A model generated the notes under the pieces. That model was not told where the DNA came from. It did not search any database and worked only from the letters and a program-made list of their open reading frames with translations. From positions 1 through 44,112 of the IMG/VR virus record IMGVR_UViG_3300045988_167653: a stretch of DNA of 44,112 bases, one strand, 5' to 3'. The DNA is from a virus. Below are positions 211 through 42,421 of the stretch, piece by piece. The first letter of the stretch is position 1; every line of letters begins with the position of its first letter. Both the position numbers and the translations under genes were made by a program.

Positions 211-283
211 TTTTTCGGCGTTGCGTTCCGCCGCCTTGTATGTCTTTTATTCTTTCATAATCGTGTTATACTCCTTTATTATT

Positions 284-449: not shown

Positions 450-521
450 GATTTCGCCGTCGCGTATTTGAAAAATTGTATGTAGTACCCCGACGGGGGA
501 AACGCTCCCACCGTCAGACGC

Positions 522-552
522 TCGCGGCCTAAACCCTATTTTTACCCGCCGC
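522..552. repeat. 31-nt repeat, copy 1 (TCGCGGCCTAAACCCTATTTTTACCCGCCGC)
   Basis: Exact match to 1354-1384. In this copy the ends form a 7-bp inverted repeat, TCGCGGC...GCCGCGA (522-553). It sits 14 nt downstream (minus sense) of the stop of CDS 567-1220. Confidence 0.9.
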
Positions 553-566
553 GACGGGTTGCGCGG

Positions 567-2580: not shown

Positions 2581-2610
2581 TTGACAGTTTAGTATTTTCA
2601 GATATATAAT
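2581..2610 (+). promoter_or_regulatory. Sigma70-type promoter (P2) abutted upstream by GTGG-N6-GTGG
   Basis: TTGACA 2581-2586, 18-nt spacer, TATAAT 2605-2610. GTGG at 2567 and 2577 lies directly upstream of the -35. Confidence 0.7.
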
Positions 2611-2616
2611 AAAGAT

Positions 2617-2693
2617 AGACATTGGTTGTATTTTGTCCTCCTGTTATATTTTAATTCGGGAAAGGCGGGTTGTGTGAGAGCAGCCCGCTTTTT
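2617..2693 (+). ncRNA. Candidate ~75-nt small RNA or attenuated leader (promoter to intrinsic terminator)
   Basis: Bounded by P2 and the terminator at 2665-2693. No ORF. Contains GUCCUCCU (2635-2642), an anti-SD-like sequence. Confidence 0.4.
2665..2693 (+). terminator. Intrinsic terminator
   Basis: GCGGGTTG (2665-2672) pairs with CAGCCCGC (2681-2688) around an 8-nt loop, followed by TTTTT (2689-2693). Confidence 0.75.
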
Positions 2694-2754
2694 CCACTTA
2701 TTATTTTAATAAGGATTATCTTTGTAGATATTAAAAGAGAGAAAGGTATATATT

Positions 2755-2919
2755 ATGGAAGAATTTAAGGCGGTCGTCGTAACCGACGAAAAAAAGATAA
2801 AGGAAATCAAAAGAGCGTTGTTATCGAGGGAAAGTTCGATTGCGGATATTAAGCCTGCCGCGCCTGATAAGTTGCCCGAAAATGCACAAAAAATGTGGTT
2901 TGGGAAAGTTGACAAATAA
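2755..2919 (+). CDS. Hypothetical small protein, 54 aa
   Basis: Hand translation: MEEFKAVVVTDEKKIKEIKRALLSRESSIADIKPAAPDKLPENAQKMWFGKVDK, TAA 2917-2919. Purine-rich stretch upstream. Below the ORF-track size cutoff. Confidence 0.5.
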   Translation: MEEFKAVVVTDEKKIKEIKRALLSRESSIADIKPAAPDKLPENAQKMWFGKVDK

Positions 2920-3057
2920 TAGCACATAATGATATTATATTTATAGACAAAAGAATAAATAGTTGAGAGCCGAAATCACCCGACAATCACGGGAGCGTGA
3001 GTACACTCTTGACTTTTGGTAAGTTTCGACACGGATTTTCGCTACCGTAGTTCGGAC

Positions 3058-3116
3058 AAAAAGCCCTTGTAAATTGCTGAAAGGCAGTAAGTTTAAGCAG
3101 GGGCTTTAATTTTTTT
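3058..3116 (+). terminator. Terminator-like long hairpin plus T-run
   Basis: AAAGCCC (3059-3066 region) pairs with GGGCTTT (3101-3107), followed by T7 (3110-3116). The loop is large, so the call is tentative. Confidence 0.4.
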
Positions 3117-3147
3117 GAAATTTTTTCTATTTTTTTAAGAAAATCTC

Positions 3148-3176
3148 TTGACAGCGGTGGTCGAAAGTGGTAACAT
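3148..3176 (+). promoter_or_regulatory. Sigma70-type promoter (P3) with GTGG-N6-GTGG in the spacer
   Basis: TTGACA 3148-3153, 17-nt spacer containing GTGG at 3157 and 3167, then TAACAT 3171-3176. Confidence 0.7.
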
Positions 3177-3206: not shown

Positions 3207-3428
3207 ATGACTAATAAAGAAAGGCAAAAGAGCCTTGATAAACAAAAGTGGGTAAACAGCGAAGATTTTGGCTATGATTTAAGCGGTAAACTTTTTTATT
3301 GCGACCATTGCAAGTTTCAAACGGAGCGCAATATGGTGAAAAGTTGTATGGCAAGTCAAAAACAGCGTGAAGAAAAGAGCCTTTGCGCCACGGCTTATAA
3401 CAAAATGGTTAGAGGAGGAAATAAATAA
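3207..3428 (+). CDS. Hypothetical small Cys-containing protein, 73 aa
   Basis: ORF track entry trimmed to the ATG at 3207, which has AGGAGG at 3192-3197. Contains CDHC plus two further Cys. Sits directly upstream of the P4/leader/terL unit. Confidence 0.7.
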   Translation: MTNKERQKSLDKQKWVNSEDFGYDLSGKLFYCDHCKFQTERNMVKSCMASQKQREEKSLCATAYNKMVRGGNK

Positions 3429-3574
3429 TGGATAACCTTTTACAATATTCGGGAATGTTGGAACGCTTTGCTTTCTTGTCGCTGCTCCGTTCGGGCGACA
3501 AAATTGTCGGCGAAACGGTTGATTTTACCGATGAGCAAAAAGAAAGGCTTAAAAATTATTCGGAAAATTTATAA
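3428..3574 (+). CDS. Hypothetical small protein, 48 aa
   Basis: Hand translation: MDNLLQYSGMLERFAFLSLLRSGDKIVGETVDFTDEQKERLKNYSENL. TAATG overlap with the previous gene. TAA 3572-3574. Confidence 0.5.
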   Translation: MDNLLQYSGMLERFAFLSLLRSGDKIVGETVDFTDEQKERLKNYSENL

Positions 3575-3580
3575 AACCCG

Positions 3581-3609
3581 TTGACAAAAGTGGACGTTAG
3601 TGGTAATAT
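3581..3609 (+). promoter_or_regulatory. Sigma70-type promoter (P4), same architecture as P3
   Basis: TTGACA 3581-3586, 17-nt spacer with GTGG at 3590 and 3600, then TAATAT 3604-3609. Confidence 0.75.
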
Positions 3610-3615
3610 CAAAGA

Positions 3616-3927
3616 GTAATCAACGTTTACTCCTGACATAAAAACACATTGGTTACTAATTGCGTAGCGAGGTTTAACCTTGCCGCGACCGCGATTGCCG
3701 ACTTATATGGGTTGGTTATGATAAGGTTATCTCGAAAGTTCCCTTATTATGTAAAAACATACTGTCATATAAGCGGTTAGGGCGATGAACCAACCTAATT
3801 GCCCAACTCCTTTGCCTTGTATCAAATAGTGTTGCTTCGGCATTGTTGTTTGTACATCTATAACTCCTTTATGCGGTTTGGGCGACACCGTACAAAAAGT
3901 CGCCCACTCCTTTGTTTTTTTTGCATT
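3616..3927 (+). ncRNA. ~310-nt structured non-coding leader upstream of terL with four ACTCCT (anti-SD-like) motifs
   Basis: No credible ORF. ACTCCT at 3629, 3806, 3863 and 3906 (the last three as ACTCCTTT). Helices by eye: 3709-3717/3788-3795, 3721-3726/3742-3747, and a TTCG-capped hairpin at 3833-3842. Confidence 0.5.
3880..3922 (+). terminator. Terminator-like hairpin plus T8 tract immediately before terL
   Basis: GGGCGAC (3880-3886) pairs with GTCGCCC (3899-3905), followed by ACTCCTTTG and T8 (3915-3922). Confidence 0.55.
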
Positions 3928-5775
3928 ATGAGCGTAGATAATTATGCAAATACAATAAACATTTGTAATAAAGAACTTAATAAGCGACTTAACAAAAAAG
4001 CGTTGTGGGACGATGATGAAACCGTTTCACAACTTTTTGATATTCTTTACACTGCCTATTGGCAACAAATTCATAAAGTTTTAGTGCCACAAGAGAATAA
4101 AACGGCGGAAGCGGAAATCCGCTCCCATATTAGGTGCATTATTTCTAATCACCTATTGCCTTTATATGCCAAAGTGGAAAAATTGAGCAAGATTGCGAAA
4201 AAATCACCCGAAAATACAAAGTTATTGAATAAGTATATGGAACTTTATGATAACTTTTATGCGCTCGCGGCGTTTCGCTCGCTTAAACACTTTGCCCTTT
4301 ATATGGAATTTGATACCGACCCGAAAGATAGGGTGTGGGAAAATGTAATGCCTTGCTTTGAGGGACTTTACTTCTATATAAACAAAATGGTGCTTGACGG
4401 CTCTATAAAACATATATGTAAACAATATCCGACGGGGTTTGGAAAGTCCTTTTCGGACATTGAAGCCATATCTTTTATATTTGGTATAAACCCTATAAAC
4501 AATGATATAATGAAAGTGGTGGGCAACCCCACGCTTGTGTCGGACGTTATGACGGGCATTGTCAATACAATGAGCAGTGCGAGATATGCCAAAGTGTTCC
4601 CGTATTATGCACAATTTAACGGCAAGGAAGAGATTTTTTCCATTTGTAGAGTAAGTCAGGGCAATCAGGGCATTTTAGTAATAAACGGCTCTAAACGCCC
4701 CAAATCATTCCTTTGTTGCGGAAAAGAAACCGCTATTGACGGCGGTCGCTTTAAGTTTAGATTTTATGATGATATTTGTAGGTCAAAAGACAAGGAAAAT
4801 ATCAATGAACACGACAAAGATTGGGCGAGATATAACGATTGTTGGAAAAAGCGTGAGTACGACCAGTATAACTCTTTTGAAATTGCTGGTGGCACTGCCT
4901 ATTCAATTTATGACTTTTTGTCAAGATACAAGGAAAAGTTTGGCGCAAAAAAAGCCGTTCCCGATAATCGTTTTCGGTACACTTATGTGAACGAAAACAC
5001 TCGATTTGTTTCGGTTTCCTGCCCTAAACTTGATTTTGACACCGATGAAAGCACTTATCCCGCAAAATACTCAACGGCGGAAGCAAGGGAAGAGCGCAAT
5101 AGAGATATGCGTACTTTTATGGCAATGGAACAACAATCGCCATTACCGCCAGAGGGAACGCCCTATTATTGGGATAATTTAAGATTATATACGGATTTGC
5201 CCGCAAAAGAGTGCAACGGCGGCACGAGAAGTGATTTTTCGTGGGCGGCACTTGACTTGCCGAGAAAAGGAAACAACTATGCCGCACTTGGCATTTTCTA
5301 TCGGGATAACAAGAGTAAGGACTTTTTTTTCACCGATTGCGTTTATGAAAAGAAACCGCTTGACGGGAAAATCGCCGATAAAGAGTTGTTGGACTATATT
5401 TGTGAAAAAATGGTTTTCCACAAGACAACTAACCTTGTCGTAGAAACAAACACGAACTCAATGATAGTAAGTGAGATAAGGAAAAGGCTTGCCGCGCTTG
5501 GGTGGTCGTGCAATATAATACCGCAATACTCTTATGAGAATAAAGAAGTAAGGATATTTAATACTCAAAGTGCGATTTTGGAGCGTATCCGTTTCCCCGA
5601 CCGCAAAATGTTCCCCGAAAGTTCAAATATGGGGCAACTTATGCGCCACGTTGTTTGCTATGCTTATGACGGCAAAAACGACGACGGAATTGATATGATT
5701 TCGATGTTTGCAAAGGCGTTTGTAAACAATGGCGTGAAAATGGGAGCGATTGAGGTGCTTGAAACTCGCCGATAA
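3928..5775 (+). CDS. terL: Terminase large subunit
   Basis: 615 aa from the ATG at 3928. Walker-A-like YPTGFGKS. Size and position directly upstream of portal fit. The track start at 3799 is a TTG inside the structured leader. No SD precedes 3928. Confidence 0.8.
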   Translation: MSVDNYANTINICNKELNKRLNKKALWDDDETVSQLFDILYTAYWQQIHKVLVPQENKTAEAEIRSHIRCIISNHLLPLYAKVEKLSKIAKKSPENTKLLNKYMELYDNFYALAAFRSLKHFALYMEFDTDPKDRVWENVMPCFEGLYFYINKMVLDGSIKHICKQYPTGFGKSFSDIEAISFIFGINPINNDIMKVVGNPTLVSDVMTGIVNTMSSARYAKVFPYYAQFNGKEEIFSICRVSQGNQGILVINGSKRPKSFLCCGKETAIDGGRFKFRFYDDICRSKDKENINEHDKDWARYNDCWKKREYDQYNSFEIAGGTAYSIYDFLSRYKEKFGAKKAVPDNRFRYTYVNENTRFVSVSCPKLDFDTDESTYPAKYSTAEAREERNRDMRTFMAMEQQSPLPPEGTPYYWDNLRLYTDLPAKECNGGTRSDFSWAALDLPRKGNNYAALGIFYRDNKSKDFFFTDCVYEKKPLDGKIADKELLDYICEKMVFHKTTNLVVETNTNSMIVSEIRKRLAALGWSCNIIPQYSYENKEVRIFNTQSAILERIRFPDRKMFPESSNMGQLMRHVVCYAYDGKNDDGIDMISMFAKAFVNNGVKMGAIEVLETRR

Positions 5776-7676: not shown

Positions 7677-7777
7677 CACATATATAAATTTCTCGACCTT
7701 GCAGAGATATAAATACAAGGCGGTCTATGCGGAGAGCCACTTCGCGTTTACAAATCAAGGCTGACCGACGGAGCATT

Positions 7778-40471: not shown

Positions 40472-40889
40472 AGAGTTTGCGGAAGTTTTCACGCCTAACT
40501 TCATTGTTCGGGATATGTGCGACCTAATACCCGCTGAAATTTGGGAAAACATAGAAAGCACTTTTTTAGAGCCGAGTTGCGGGAATGGAAACTTTATTGT
40601 TGAAATATTAAAACGGAAATATTCACGGTGCAAAACGCCAAAAGACGGGTTAAAAGCACTTGCAAGCGTTGTTGGGATAGATATTCAAGAAGATAATTGC
40701 AAAGAGTGTAGAGAACGATTGTTGGCGCAATTTATGGAGCATTTCCCGACCGCAAACAATATTGCTATTGCCACGGCATATAAAATTTTGCAGAATAACA
40801 TTATTTGCGGGGATAGCCTTAAAATAATGGAAAGTTGGGAAGAAAAAGAACAATTAAGTATATTTGATTTTATAGAAGAACCGAAATGA
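40434..40889 (+). CDS. N6-adenine DNA methyltransferase-like N-terminal (AdoMet-binding) module only
   Basis: 151 aa. EVFTPNFIVRDMCDLIP...FLEPSCGNGNFIVE matches the start plus motif I of gamma-class MTases. No (D/N)PP(Y/F) catalytic motif appears anywhere in the ORF. Confidence 0.5.
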   Translation: MEEKLIKSKTRVKEFAEVFTPNFIVRDMCDLIPAEIWENIESTFLEPSCGNGNFIVEILKRKYSRCKTPKDGLKALASVVGIDIQEDNCKECRERLLAQFMEHFPTANNIAIATAYKILQNNIICGDSLKIMESWEEKEQLSIFDFIEEPK

Positions 40890-41788
40890 AAACACGAGAA
40901 ATCACGGACGAAATTAAAAAGCAAGTAATCGAGTGCTATAACCGTCATTATTCAACAGAAAAAACACTTAACATAATTCCTATAAGCGTATATCAATATT
41001 ATGGGATATTACACGAGGCAAGGGAAAAGGGCGAGTATGTGATACCGCCCCACTCCCCAAAACCAAAGCCGCCGAAACCGCAGAAAGTGCAGAAACAGCA
41101 CGAGTACGATGTGCGCCGATATAATAACCCTAAAACCGCGGAAAACATAGAAAAGACCATTGCAATGCGGGCGGACGGAGTAACTCTCCGAGAAGTCGCA
41201 GAAAGGCTTGGCGTGTCGCTTGGAATGGCAAAATACTATTGGAGTATAGCAATATATAGGGGCGAGAAAAAGACGGGCAGACCGAACAAGTTTGAGCCGA
41301 GCGGCGTTGAGATTGCCAGAATGAGGCAACTATATGCGGGCGGAGCGTCGGTTGCCCAAATAGCCGCAGAAATGGGCGTTTGCGGGACGACAATATATAA
41401 GTACCTGAAAGATAACAAGTGGCGTAGGGCGGCGGTCAGGGATATTCACCGCGAGCGTGTGATATACTTATACCGTTGCGGGTTCTCTTATAGTGATATA
41501 GCCCGCGCAATCGGGCATAGTATAAACTATGTAAGCACATTGTTAGACGGGGAAAAGGAAAGGCGCAAGCCGTGGACGAGCGACGACGAACGGGCTTTGA
41601 TTGCAGCCGTTAAGAGCGGGAAAACCCCCGCCGAGATAGCCCCGCAAATGGGACGGAGCGCAAACACAATATCACAATATATTTACTTGTTGCGGAAAGG
41701 CGGAAAGATACCGCCGAGCCAAAGGGCGATAAACCGCCTTAAAAACGGCGAAAGCACGGCGGACGAACAAGTTATCACCCGAACATAA
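40886..41788 (+). CDS. Protein with five tandem helix-turn-helix modules
   Basis: 300 aa. Repeated pattern x-G-x-S/T-xx-E/D-I-A-xx-hG-h-S-xx-T-h-xxYh: STEKTLNIIPISVYQYY, VTLREVAERLGVSLGMAKYY, ASVAQIAAEMGVCGTTIYKYL, FSYSDIARAIGHSINYVSTLL, KTPAEIAPQMGRSANTISQYI. Confidence 0.6.
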   Translation: MKTREITDEIKKQVIECYNRHYSTEKTLNIIPISVYQYYGILHEAREKGEYVIPPHSPKPKPPKPQKVQKQHEYDVRRYNNPKTAENIEKTIAMRADGVTLREVAERLGVSLGMAKYYWSIAIYRGEKKTGRPNKFEPSGVEIARMRQLYAGGASVAQIAAEMGVCGTTIYKYLKDNKWRRAAVRDIHRERVIYLYRCGFSYSDIARAIGHSINYVSTLLDGEKERRKPWTSDDERALIAAVKSGKTPAEIAPQMGRSANTISQYIYLLRKGGKIPPSQRAINRLKNGESTADEQVITRT

Positions 41789-41863: not shown

Positions 41864-42421
41864 TTACTTAACTTTACAGGTGCAAAGCATTGTTTTTGCC
41901 GAGCCGTCGGGGGTTTCAATAAAAATATGACGGGTTGCATTGTCGGCGTCAATCGTAATAAGAGCGCGCTTGCCATATCCATAATCTTTAAGCGAGTTAA
42001 GGATTTCAGCGAGCATTTTGGCGTCAATTCCGATTTCAATAGGTTGTTTTGGCGCGTTCGTTGCATAAATGCACTCCCAACCGATATAATCAACGAGATA
42101 GTTCGTTGTTAGGCTTGTTGTGCCGTCGCACATTGTTACGGACTTATTGTCGTTAATCATAAAGTCAACGCGCATTGCGTGCTTGTCGATTTTGACGGGC
42201 TTAACAAAAAAGTCAAACACCTGTTCGTCTTTGGTGATTACGTCGGTTGATGTTACGGTCGCAAGTCGGAAAGCGTCGCAACCGATAGCGGTCGCTTTGT
42301 TTGCCCTAACTTCGATTTTGATATATTGCAGATTTTCGCGCACGCCGTCGGTGTCAAGGCACGCTCCGCAAACTTTGAACATTTTTCTAACATCATTAGC
42401 ATTGATTGATACGATTTTCAT
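41864..42421 (-). CDS. Compact DNA polymerase III beta-clamp-like protein (putative)
   Basis: 185 aa with an AAAGGAGT SD. LQYIKIEVRANKATAIGCDAFRLA resembles DnaN domain I (..L.l.atD..Rla). IGIDAKMLAEILNSL...IFIETP....MLC resembles the DnaN C-terminal FN.kYL.d.L....P....mP segment. Confidence 0.4.
   Translation of the reverse strand: MKIVSINANDVRKMFKVCGACLDTDGVRENLQYIKIEVRANKATAIGCDAFRLATVTSTDVITKDEQVFDFFVKPVKIDKHAMRVDFMINDNKSVTMCDGTTSLTTNYLVDYIGWECIYATNAPKQPIEIGIDAKMLAEILNSLKDYGYGKRALITIDADNATRHIFIETPDGSAKTMLCTCKVK

Follow-up and report, generated by a model that had tools for sequence, protein, structure and literature searches.

What does the non-coding stretch between a strong promoter and the packaging genes of a roughly 44-kb human-gut phage encode, and how does it bear on terL, the gene that follows it and that starts without a Shine-Dalgarno (SD) sequence? 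We addressed this question in a stretch of 44,112 nucleotides, analysed as a whole and referred to below as the window (features in Table 1). Our analysis shows that the stretch preceding terL encodes a real folded leader RNA, which probably controls the timing or the amount of packaging-gene expression.

The promoter scan scored 10/12 for TTGACA-17-TAATAT, and the near-consensus promoter named in an earlier note on this DNA was confirmed, with the -35 hexamer at 3581-3586, the -10 hexamer at 3604-3609 and a TG at 3601-3602 that makes it an extended -10. Transcription would start near 3616. The -35 hexamer is identical in four lineages, this phage and its relatives L019, L022 and L023, all of which have a TAnnnT -10 at a spacing of 17-18 nt. 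As far as sequence can tell, the constitutive host-type promoter of the lambda model is thus present directly before the late genes. Within the window, the 42 nt at 3568-3609 are 71% identical to the promoter at 3135-3176. The promoters at 3148 and 3581 have a GTGG..AGTGG spacer repeat in common, no more than a hint of a Q-binding element, and a -10-like TAATCA at 3618-3623 is no more than a hint of a pause element.

No credible ORF was found in 3575-3930 on either strand, in agreement with the earlier description of about 310 nt free of credible ORFs after the promoter. Among strain variants there are indels of 1 nt at 3753 and of 1-2 nt in the T-run, and in 5 of 19 variants a G>A substitution at 3845 places a stop codon in an 11-aa micro-ORF on the minus strand; for these reasons we regard the stretch as non-coding. 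On the + strand the entire leader has a folding energy of -89.7 kcal/mol (z = -4.09; 0/100 shuffles as good), the minus strand fold is non-significant (z = -1.70), and 3660-3860 folded alone gives z = -2.98. All six strain substitutions in high-confidence stems (3697, 3720, 3746, 3749, 3766 and 3845) keep + strand pairing via wobble. Two of the helices previously picked out by eye were recovered: ATAAGG/CCTTAT is part of a 10-bp helix of 3717-3726 with 3742-3751 (pair probability 0.95), and the small hairpin 3833-3842 has a predicted probability of 0.65, although its TTCG loop varies among strains. The third, GGGTTGGTT with AACCAACC, is complementary yet absent from the MFE structure; it shows no sequence variation and could pair solely as a loop-to-internal-loop tertiary contact.

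Comparison with related phages divided this structured leader in two. Its larger part, module 1 (about 230 nt), is restricted to this phage species and lies outside the conserved element: blastn, nhmmer and GTDB 24-mers detected no homologs of it outside the species. A blastn search in distant mode of 50,697 phage records returned no leader match, nhmmer of the leader against the relatives matched only in the orf73 coding part, and the GTDB genomes contained neither a TerL relative nor an exact 24-mer from module 1. In its place the relatives show either less leader sequence or tRNA genes ahead of the packaging operon. Within the species, too, the leader shows no special conservation, since the 96-98% identity of same-species relatives over it equals the genome-wide baseline and those that seemed to be "92% TerL" relatives proved to be mosaic recombinants.

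Table 1. Features of the leader and its surroundings, in window coordinates.
Feature	Position	Strand	Remarks
orf73, small ORF	3207-3428	+	four invariant Cys: C32, C35, C47, C60
orf48, small ORF	3428-3574	+	neighbour of the RNA element
Sigma-A/sigma-70-type promoter	3581..3609	+	-35 TTGACA, 17-nt spacer, extended -10 TGgTAATAT
Module 1, species-specific structured domain	3616..3860	+	four hairpins H1-H4; helix probabilities 0.86-0.99
ACUCCU motif copy 1	3629..3634	+	core predicted unpaired
Hairpin H1	3667-3683	+	part of module 1
Long irregular hairpin H2	3697-3777	+	part of module 1
Hairpin H3	3780-3804	+	11-nt loop GAACCAACCUA; part of module 1
ACUCCUUU copy 2	3806..3813	+	single-stranded H3-H4 linker; unpaired probability 0.83-0.99; invariant in 19 strain variants
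Hairpin H4	3818-3856	+	part of module 1
ACUCCUUU copy 3	3863..3870	+	directly 5' of the pseudoknot
H-type pseudoknot, module 2 core	3872..3906	+	predicted by pseudoknot finder and six-lineage covariation
Pseudoknot S1	3872-3877 with 3887-3892	+	core GCGG/CCGU
Pseudoknot S2	3879-3886 with 3899-3906	+	8-bp GC-rich stem; the hairpin of the earlier note
Pseudoknot loops	L1 = U3878; L3 = 3893-3898	+	L3 A-rich (CAAAAA); L2 absent in this register
ACUCCUUU copy 4 (3906-3913), then U-tract UUUGUUUUUUUU (3911-3922)	3906..3922	+	tract length strain-variable
terL, large terminase subunit	3928..5775	+	PF22530, PHROG 38; ATG without SD

The conserved part is at the 3' end of the leader. A hairpin of GGGCGAC (3880-3886) and GTCGCCC (3899-3905) followed by T8 (3915-3922), which had been read as a plain terminator, does exist there, but the comparison favours another structure, in which this hairpin is stem 2 (S2) of a predicted and conserved H-type pseudoknot. 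Our own pseudoknot finder gave 14 bp, a value reached by 0/400 dinucleotide shuffles. Six phage lineages with TerL identities of 51-100% open the packaging operon with the pseudoknot design, its topology in the window being shared with L019, L022, L023, L024 and L015, and covariation supports the H-type strand order S1a-S2a-S1b-S2b with short loops. In alignment A7, which was registered by hand and holds these six lineages only, 64/64 cells pair, with compensatory changes in 10 of the 12 pairs; 0/500 shuffles match this, and slid controls give 40-52% pairing. This alignment uses the 4-bp-core register of S1, in which L1 is UUU and A3887 forms a 1-nt L2. Across lineages S1 has 4-6 bp, L1 is U-rich, S2 has 5-8 bp, L2 has 0-1 nt and L3 is A-rich; G-U pairs occur in both stems, the loop sequences are conserved (UUU, CCAAA/ACAAA), and strain variation is confined to L1, L3 and the terminal pair. 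The pseudoknot descriptor was specific across the 3.0 Mb of compared DNA. Together with its surroundings it makes up a conserved module (3863-3927) that consists of a CU-rich single-stranded motif, the pseudoknot, a pyrimidine/U tract and the operon's first start codon, usually SD-less.

No relevant Rfam 15 match to the leader was obtained at gathering score or at E<=10 (window, L019 and L015). Judged by this comparison the candidate pseudoknot motif is new relative to Rfam 15, and it may be among the candidates of PMC10690425; the earlier suggestion of a new structured RNA class tied to packaging genes gains support from a pseudoknot that is conserved at the operon head and matches no Rfam family. 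An IMG/VR scan for GCAGTTT-gap-CTGCCCAAAA gave 42 matches, which we attribute to chance because none had a complementary S2. As carriers we rejected the TerL family of 636-637 aa (about 50% identity), which has a different upstream arrangement and no leader, and L181-184 (TerL 47-48% identity), which have a tRNA and a different conserved leader.

How would such a leader act? Our best guess, still a tentative one, is leaky attenuation together with the release of a small RNA with CU motifs. The stretch would be the 5' leader of the packaging (late) operon, transcribed rightward from the conserved near-consensus host-type promoter, and S2 with the U-tract would form a leaky or factor-controlled transcription stop that insulates the packaging genes from a promoter usable by host polymerase at any time. 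Stopping would yield transcripts of about 300 nt in the window, or of about 90 nt in L019 and L022, and these would build up as a small RNA showing unpaired CUCC/CCCCC motifs able to pair with SD sequences, and the read-through transcripts would serve as terL mRNA, intrinsically weakly translated because it lacks an SD. The layout of the relatives speaks for such a role, with what can be read as promoter, RNA genes, stop signal and late genes in this order. In several of them tRNA genes lie between the strong promoter and the pseudoknot, and in L024 tRNA-Met ends 2 nt before the pseudoknot; L019 and L022 have about 45-60 nt only from promoter to pseudoknot, and ARAGORN found no tRNA in the window. 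Taken as sequence arrangements, these layouts show the gap to be a putative slot for evolutionary cargo such as tRNAs and other small RNAs. A precedent is offered by Stx phages, whose short terminated PR' transcript is described as the regulatory sRNA StxS (PMC7547250).

Likeness to a terminator is not conserved. The U-tract directly abuts S2 in just 2-3 of the six lineages, L015 and L019 among them. In the window 4 nt (CUCC) separate the two, or a 2-bp extension reaches across a 2x2 internal loop; in L023 CCCC precedes U5, in L024 S2 is not directly followed by a U-tract, and the stem of L022 has 5 bp. Among strains the tract reads T8, T7 or A+T6. A d'Aubenton-Carafa-type score was d = +11.9 for the extended stem of the window and d = +10 for L015, where U7 follows right after S2, and fell below zero in 4/6 lineages; it is weak evidence either way, since two control terminators also scored below zero. 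L019, with U6 right after S2, is terminator-like by eye, and a terminator scan of the window did not list the S2 hairpin. Against the attenuator, conservation of S1 and the loops points to a specific 3D structure with a further role, because a plain terminator needs no S1. In L024 substantial read-through must occur, since pseudoknot and operon lie too close together to accommodate a promoter.

Searches of Pfam, PHROG and PDB folds identified no antiterminator candidate, which also counts against the attenuator. The ORF with cysteines at 3207-3428 had been noted as sitting where Q would sit, a hint that was not upheld. Neither orf73 nor orf48 has a Pfam or PHROG match, and the AF2 model of orf73 (pLDDT 86) has no PDB match at E<1, so that no family or fold identifies orf73 as Q-like or Com-like; its four invariant Cys suggest a small zinc-binding protein. 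Its homologs in other phages lie among early genes (NinB, methylases), away from terL, and L015 and L024, which have the pseudoknot, carry different small ORFs in its place. The parallel to lambda PR'/6S/tR' holds for the layout of promoter, leader and terL, fails for the Q-family gene, and stays as a possible working model.

A close rival of the attenuator, although on balance unlikely, is a translational operator, in which the pseudoknot and the unstructured pyrimidine-rich stretch form the initiation region, and protein or 30S docking sets the use of the SD-less AUG. The rpsO/S15 pseudoknot is a further model for such an element. The TerL N-terminus aligns with those of the relatives from the ATG onward and the 25 nt upstream, CCCACTCCTTTGTTTTTTTTGCATT, contain no SD, as the earlier note had stated, whereas nearly all other genes of the window have AGGAG, GGAG or GAGG. 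The first start codon after the pseudoknot lacks an SD in 4/6 lineages and in 5/6 is separated from the pseudoknot's 3' end by a U/C-rich spacer of 14-26 nt, and the conservation of S1 and loops would fit a recognised 3D shape; the T4 gene 32 operator has a like architecture (PMC535899). These arguments are weakened by L023, where the pseudoknot is 45 nt upstream of the start and an AAGGA SD is present, and by L024 with its GGAG SD. The cistron behind the pseudoknot also varies, being terL in some lineages and a small HTH-like ORF in L015 and L024, which makes a simple autoregulatory loop unlikely. A hairpin of 3911-3929 with 3941-3959 that would occlude the start was rejected as a conserved feature, as it is found just in the window and L019.

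The ACTCCT motifs raise the question whether the leader acts in trans. ACTCCT occurs at 3629, 3806, 3863 and 3906, three copies being ACTCCTTT within 108 nt, as had been reported, and the enrichment of this anti-SD-like motif is real: the window holds 9 copies of ACTCCTTT against 1.5 expected from shuffles (6-fold), three of them clustered in the leader. In the leader, the copies do not vary among strains and are predicted to be single-stranded. At the copy-3 position L023 has the identical motif, L019 has ACCCCCUU and L022 UUCCCCC; relatives carry CCCCC in the same place. A roughly 300-nt RNA with 3-4 unpaired ACUCCUUU could pair with AAAGGAGU-type SDs and shut down translation of some phage genes, notably leftward ones, or of host genes. 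We consider this riboregulator rather improbable. Three leftward genes (567-1220, 1361-1690 and 41864-42421) but only two rightward ones use the exact complement AAAGGAGT as their SD, leader positions 3804-3815 are perfectly complementary over 12 nt to the SD of gene 567-1220, and PMC2790875 and PMC5419742 describe the targeting of SDs by unpaired C-rich motifs. However, any CUCC motif can pair with any SD, which is a problem for specificity, and in L015 and L024 ACUCCC itself forms stem 2b of the pseudoknot and is hence paired. Within the window, the strongest non-self duplex (-31.6 kcal/mol) falls in a CDS, off start codons; we had considered it as the translation initiation region of a gene starting at 41039, but the true start of that gene is 40886. 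The 300-aa multi-HTH protein encoded at 40886-41788 has Terminase_5/HTH matches. Scanning IMG/VR for ACTCCTTT-gap-ACTCCTTT-gap-ACTCCTTT retrieved the same species, unrelated tandem repeats and nothing else.

We give similarly little credence to the idea that the pseudoknot and its flanking CUCYUUU motifs represent a new cis-acting RNA class at packaging-operon heads, unlike the catalogued bacterial leaders. Such an RNA might replace the SD, the pseudoknot bringing 30S subunits or a phage factor to the SD-less first cistron, or parking them there, in an SD-dependent host; or it might be an exonuclease- or Rho-resistant knot that, once tRNA/sRNA cargo has been cut away, sets where the late mRNA begins. 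In addition, module 1, with three 16S-tail-like ACUCCUUU, might be a sponge, a decoy for SDs or for a factor that recognises the 16S 3' tail.

Still less probable is a 5' boundary element, in which the very stable pseudoknot, left at the 5' end of the late mRNA after cargo excision, would block a 5'-to-3' exonuclease (RNase J1-type) or Rho. Models exist in 5' stabilisers and xrRNA-like knots that block exonuclease, and the compact GC-rich coaxial design with its short L2 and A-rich L3, the position next to tRNA-Met in L024 and the slot that holds processed RNAs (tRNAs) in several relatives would all suit such an element. Yet L019 and L022 have nothing to process in their short promoter-pseudoknot gap, and the absence of the SD is left unexplained. 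We think it very unlikely that the leader is a cis-acting processive antitermination RNA (HK022 put / Bacillus EAR-like), its pseudoknot binding polymerase and making it resistant to terminators over the late operon: in L019 and L022 the pseudoknot directly follows the operon promoter, its 3D structure is conserved and the protein searches left the antiterminator role vacant, but there is no Rfam family similarity, and in the window, L024 and L015 the pseudoknot is far from the promoter. Scarcely credible is a function at the DNA level or on the minus strand, be it a terminase-bound pac/cos site with ACTCCTTT repeats or, as the earlier note had considered, minus-strand SDs for micro-ORFs, since in spite of the adjoining terL, 8-mer repeats that are all on one strand and no recognisable terS nearby, pairing is kept via G-U wobble, workable in + strand RNA only, the minus-strand fold falls short of significance, the 11-aa micro-ORF is interrupted as described above, the other micro-ORFs have just 3-8 aa, and related contig ends lie 1-2.4 kb upstream of terL, variable and outside the leader.

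The product of this analysis is a sharply defined RNA motif of about 35 nt with clear covariation, a fixed place where the packaging operon begins, and an SD-less first gene; being small, covarying, fixed in position and paired with that gene, it is directly testable. To our knowledge, the timing and dosing of packaging and head gene expression in gut-Firmicutes tailed phages are largely unknown outside a few model systems. If the element is an attenuator, lambda-style late control would extend to a pseudoknot-based signal without a Q homolog; if it is translational, it would bear on initiation at SD-less starts in SD-dependent bacteria.

Among known systems, lambda PR'/6S/tR'/Q resembles this locus in its strong host-type promoter immediately before late/packaging genes, in its non-coding leader of 90-300 nt closed by a hairpin and U-tract, and in a short transcript that could double as a regulatory RNA. 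Stx phages also hold tRNAs in the late leader, as relatives of this phage do. Unlike lambda, there is no Q-family protein here, the stop signal would be a pseudoknot that is often not terminator-like, and the SD usage suggests a Firmicutes-like, SD-dependent host. RsaE/RoxS and RNAIII, as described in PMC2790875 and PMC5419742, share hairpins parted by unpaired C-rich anti-SD motifs, an own promoter and a 3' hairpin with U-tract; they differ in having UCCC/CCCC, where our RNA has ACUCCUUU and its phage relatives CCCCC, and our RNA is fused to the 5' end of an operon and has no Rfam match. Small H-type riboswitches such as preQ1-I and SAM-II are alike in topology, A-rich L3 and a site directly upstream of a U-tract/start codon. 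However, the covariance models of preQ1-I, preQ1-II and SAM-II gave no match even at the permissive threshold in the three leaders compared with Rfam, no preQ1-I-type ligand pocket is evident given the length ranges of L2 and S2, and no metabolic link is apparent. A survey of the IMG/VR catalogue reported GP20-a/b and 14 candidate motifs that consistently precede a putative large terminase (psiM2_ORF9) (PMC10690425); the TerL studied here belongs to a different Pfam family (PF22530). The GP20-a motif also occurs in this window.

The T4 gene 32 operator shows no sequence relationship to our motif, and the gene downstream here is terL or a small HTH-like ORF, not a ssDNA-binding protein. NMR work on T2/T4 reportedly found an L1 of one to few nt crossing a 7-8-bp S2 and an L3 of 6-7 nt, a geometry similar to that predicted here. 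The T4 pseudoknot is about 40 nt from the AUG, compared with the shorter distance seen here in most lineages, and T4 keeps a normal RBS where our SD is usually missing. The T4 operator consists of a pseudoknot and then an unstructured region that holds the RBS (PMC535899). Both systems place an H-type pseudoknot of about 28-35 nt at the 5' edge of an unstructured pyrimidine/A-U-rich initiation region (PMC535899), and this architecture, a pseudoknot adjoining an unstructured start region, is present in 5/6 of our lineages.

The hairpin before terL, which the earlier note read as a terminator, does lie where it was placed, but it is better described as stem 2 (S2) of a pseudoknot: the loop of a second stem, S1, holds its 5′ arm, and the loop of S2 holds the 3′ arm of S1. 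In the maximal register, with a single U as loop L1, no L2 and CAAAAA as L3, positions 3872-3906 are predicted to form a 14-bp pseudoknot of the classical H type; none of 400 dinucleotide shuffles reached this number of pairs. Knots of the same topology and different sequence were found in three related phage loci (L023, L022 and L019), and a generic pseudoknot search reported the knot also in the more distant L024 and L015, where it precedes the leading small ORF of an operon with the order ORF-ORF-terL. With these two matches the consensus S1a(4)-UUU-S2a(5-8)-S1b-[A/C]CAAA-S2b (a and b, 5′ and 3′ arms) proved predictive. The alignment of the six lineages (A7) takes only the 4-bp core of S1; the window sequence is then GCGG-UUU-GGGCGAC-A-CCGU. 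The covariation for which the earlier note proposed to examine relatives was evident: in this alignment, fitted by hand and comprising six lineages only, standard pairs occupied 64 of 64 cells and compensatory changes 10 of 12 pairs. None of 500 shuffles equalled this pairing, and it fell to 40-52% when the partners were slid by 1-3 columns. The consensus descriptor, built from sequences it later matched, gave a single false positive in 3.0 Mb of related and unrelated DNA and otherwise matched nothing but these leaders. The proposed search with Rfam covariance models matched the knot to no family, preQ1 and SAM-II included, even at E ≤ 10.

Features of the terL leader, its relatives and the surrounding phage genome
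Feature	Locus	Position	Strand	Remarks
Promoter TTGACA-17-TAATAT	window	3581-3609	+	extended −10 TG
S1, maximal register	window	3872-3877 with 3887-3892	+	UGCGGU with ACCGUA
S2, maximal register	window	3879-3886 with 3899-3906	+	UGGGCGAC with GUCGCCCA
Knot	L024			ACGG-UUU-GGGGGUU-CCGU-CCAAA-AACUCCC
Knot	L015			CGAG-UUU-GGGAGU-CUCG-ACAAA-ACUCCC
terL	window	3928-5775	+	PF22530, PHROG 38
42-nt promoter repeat	window	3135-3176; 3568-3609		before orf73; before leader
Promoter and hairpin	window	2581-2695		perfect-consensus TTGACA-18-TATAAT (2581-2610); 16-bp hairpin 2658-2695
Promoter and hairpin	window	2909-3117		TTGACA-18-TATTAT (2909-2938); long GC hairpin and T7, ~3062-3117
tRNA slot	L024	1280-1596		
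tRNA slot	L015	1657-2083		
tRNA slot	L181	2801-2875		
tRNA slot	L183	2516-2905		
tRNA slot	L184	2140-2884		
Other terL leader	L181	2876-3000		
Other terL leader	L183	2906-3000		
Other terL leader	L184	2885-3000		
GP20-a motif (RF02991)	window	7688-7777	+	5′ of gene after portal gene
GP20-a motif	L019	4948-5038		
GP20-a motif	L023	3921-4009		
GP20-a motif	L024	5804-5894		
Pistol ribozyme	window	483-559	−	60.4 bits; gathering score 34.5
SD and 3-codon ORF	window	258-277	−	perfect AAAGGAGT; ATG AAA GAA TAA 11 nt on

All the sequence features that the earlier note listed for the leader were found where it had placed them. The 25 nt 5′ of the terL ATG contain no Shine-Dalgarno sequence (SD), and there is no credible ORF of at least 20 aa in 3575-3930. 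Among 19 distinct strain variants, a 1-nt indel at 3753 breaks the sole 43-aa plus-strand ORF, the T-run carries 1-2-nt indels and 3845 G>A (five variants) turns the fifth codon of the 11-aa micro-ORF on the minus strand into a stop, which shows that the stretch before terL is non-coding. The plus-strand RNA has a predicted fold of −89.7 kcal/mol (z = −4.09); the minus-strand fold is not significant (z = −1.70). Same-species relatives are 96-98% identical across the leader, which is the genome-wide baseline, so they hold little covariation information; all six strain substitutions in high-confidence stems exchange Watson-Crick and wobble pairs and keep the pairing only in plus-strand RNA. The anti-SD-like 8-mer ACTCCTTT occurs nine times in the window (1.5 expected), three of them inside 108 nt of the leader, and genuine SDs outside the leader are marked by this 8-mer or the sequence complementary to it. 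None of the four motif copies in the leader varies among strains. The best non-self complement to leader positions 3799-3822 in the whole window is 41013-41036 (+), with 19 bp including 3 G-U and a duplex of −31.6 kcal/mol (−26.2 for the next site), within the coding sequence of a 300-aa multi-HTH protein (40886-41788; HTH_23, Terminase_5 and Sigma70_r4 hits); this complementarity is probably due to chance.

Comparison by identity of the large terminase (TerL) indicates that the leader is built of two modules that evolve differently. The space before terL is 107 nt in L019-21 (74% TerL identity) and 135 nt in L022 (73%); L023 (65%) has ~215 nt from its own promoter to terL, and in L024 (59%) and L015 (51%) no space separates the upstream ORF from terL. 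The last ~80 nt of the window leader align with the entire leader of L019 and L022, and window positions 3616-3845 have no counterpart outside the phage species among phage records, TerL relatives and GTDB genomes. Between promoter and knot there is no cargo in L019 and L022, ~130 nt in L023 and a 230-nt four-hairpin domain in the window, while L024 carries three tRNA genes, the last (tRNA-Met) ending 2 nt before the knot, and L015 two, further upstream. In L024, L015, L181, L183 and L184, one to three tRNA genes (Thr, Met, Ser, Gln, Ala, Arg, Pro) occupy the slot just 5′ of the packaging operon. L181, L183 and L184 (47-48% TerL identity) have another conserved terL leader in common, (U)AUCUCCYUU-(T/A)TGACAA-AGCGGAAAGACGCUUG..CUCGGACAGACG..ACGCGCAGACG, which again starts with an anti-SD-like CUCC motif.

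A CU-rich motif stands beside the knot or forms S2b in all lineages: ACUCCUUU in the window (both sides of the knot) and L023, ACCUCUUUUG in L015, UCCUCUUUUG in L024; L019 and L022 carry ACCCCCUU or UUCCCCC. A U- or pyrimidine-rich tract lies 3′ of the knot. In five lineages the first AUG of the operon lies 14-26 nt past the knot, and in L023 the distance is 45 nt; in four of the six this start has no SD. S2 and its U-tract are terminator-like in L015 and L019, where U7 and U6, respectively, abut the stem, whereas in the window this requires the pairs G3875-C3910 and G3876-C3909 to lengthen the stem across a 2x2 loop, with UUUGUUUUUUUU then directly 3′. The other three lineages are not terminator-like: L023 has a CCCC spacer, L024 lacks a U-tract next to S2, and the stem of L022 is 5 bp. 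Conservation thus extends to the knot but not to its quality as a terminator. For termination neither S1 nor conserved loop sequences would be needed, which argues that the element is more than a terminator. It may nevertheless attenuate transcription; weak terminators assisted by NusA/NusG are common in Firmicutes.

A strong promoter precedes the knot in all four lineages with readable upstream DNA, with an invariant −35 and a TAnnnT −10 at 17-18 nt in the window, L019, L022 and L023; L024 has a different but similar promoter ~1 kb upstream. The promoters before orf73, a small ORF at 3207-3428, and before the leader share a repeat (71% identity) that includes the spacer GTGG..AGTGGTAA, and the relatives' promoters also carry GTGG just 5′ of the −10; the repeat could be a binding site for a common regulator. 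Two further promoter/short-RNA/terminator units upstream may be additional small RNA genes. The earlier note placed orf73 where lambda Q would sit. It is one of a family of 33 small proteins in which four cysteines are invariant. Neither Pfam nor PHROG gave a hit for orf73, its confident AF2 model (pLDDT 86) has no PDB match, in other phages it lies among early genes (e.g., NinB, DNA methylases), and it is absent from the knot-bearing L015 and L024. We therefore do not assign orf73 to the Q systems, and a functional analogy to Q is at most a possibility.

The window represents approximately the entire ~44 kb genome of a human gut phage that is frequent among the gut assemblies of ENA and Logan, with near-identical contigs of 38-47 kb in many of them; a search of 185,579 GTDB species genomes found no relative. 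Nearly all its genes have strong SDs (AAGGAG, AGGAG or GAGG type), from which we infer an SD-dependent, Firmicutes-like host. An SPP1-type portal gene lies 3′ of terL, followed by a GP20-a RNA motif that is conserved in this phage family. TerL of some same-phage strains (L011, L012, L013, L016; proteins P0005, P0006) carries an intein/homing-endonuclease insertion (PF14890) after ~residue 29 or ~residue 128. The terL segment 4300-5100 is 10-28% diverged from L026/L027 between flanks 97-99% identical, a mosaic that indicates recombination inside the gene. Many related assembled contigs end at variable positions within 1540-2880, and strains of the phage differ most from one another, within this locus, at 1900-2600; 1540-2880 may represent a control region that is hypervariable, or the region of the genome ends. 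The leftward gene cluster has a Pistol self-cleaving ribozyme at its 3′ end, and a perfect SD precedes a three-codon ORF on the minus strand.

As to mechanism, we tentatively favor a leaky or regulated attenuator, which would also release a small RNA carrying the CU motif. A translational operator acting on the SD-less first cistron is a possible, less probable reading. That the RNA is chiefly a trans-acting anti-SD riboregulator seems unlikely, and a role as 5′ boundary or stabilizer once the cargo is processed more unlikely still; an antitermination RNA resembling put or EAR is improbable. A DNA-level site or minus-strand micro-ORFs, the latter named in the earlier note as a refuting alternative, are hardly credible: the pairing depends on wobbles, only one strand folds significantly, and the micro-ORF acquires a stop codon in some strains, all of which contradict this reading. 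Several of these mechanisms could coexist. In the papers examined we found no description of this pseudoknot; a large catalogue (PMC10690425) lists unnamed candidate motifs 5′ of terminase genes, which may include the knot. Promoter-leader-terminator units before late genes are already known, as are pseudoknots in phage translational operators. Rfam 15, however, contains no conserved pseudoknot that is flanked by CUCYUUU motifs and heads a packaging operon with an SD-less start.
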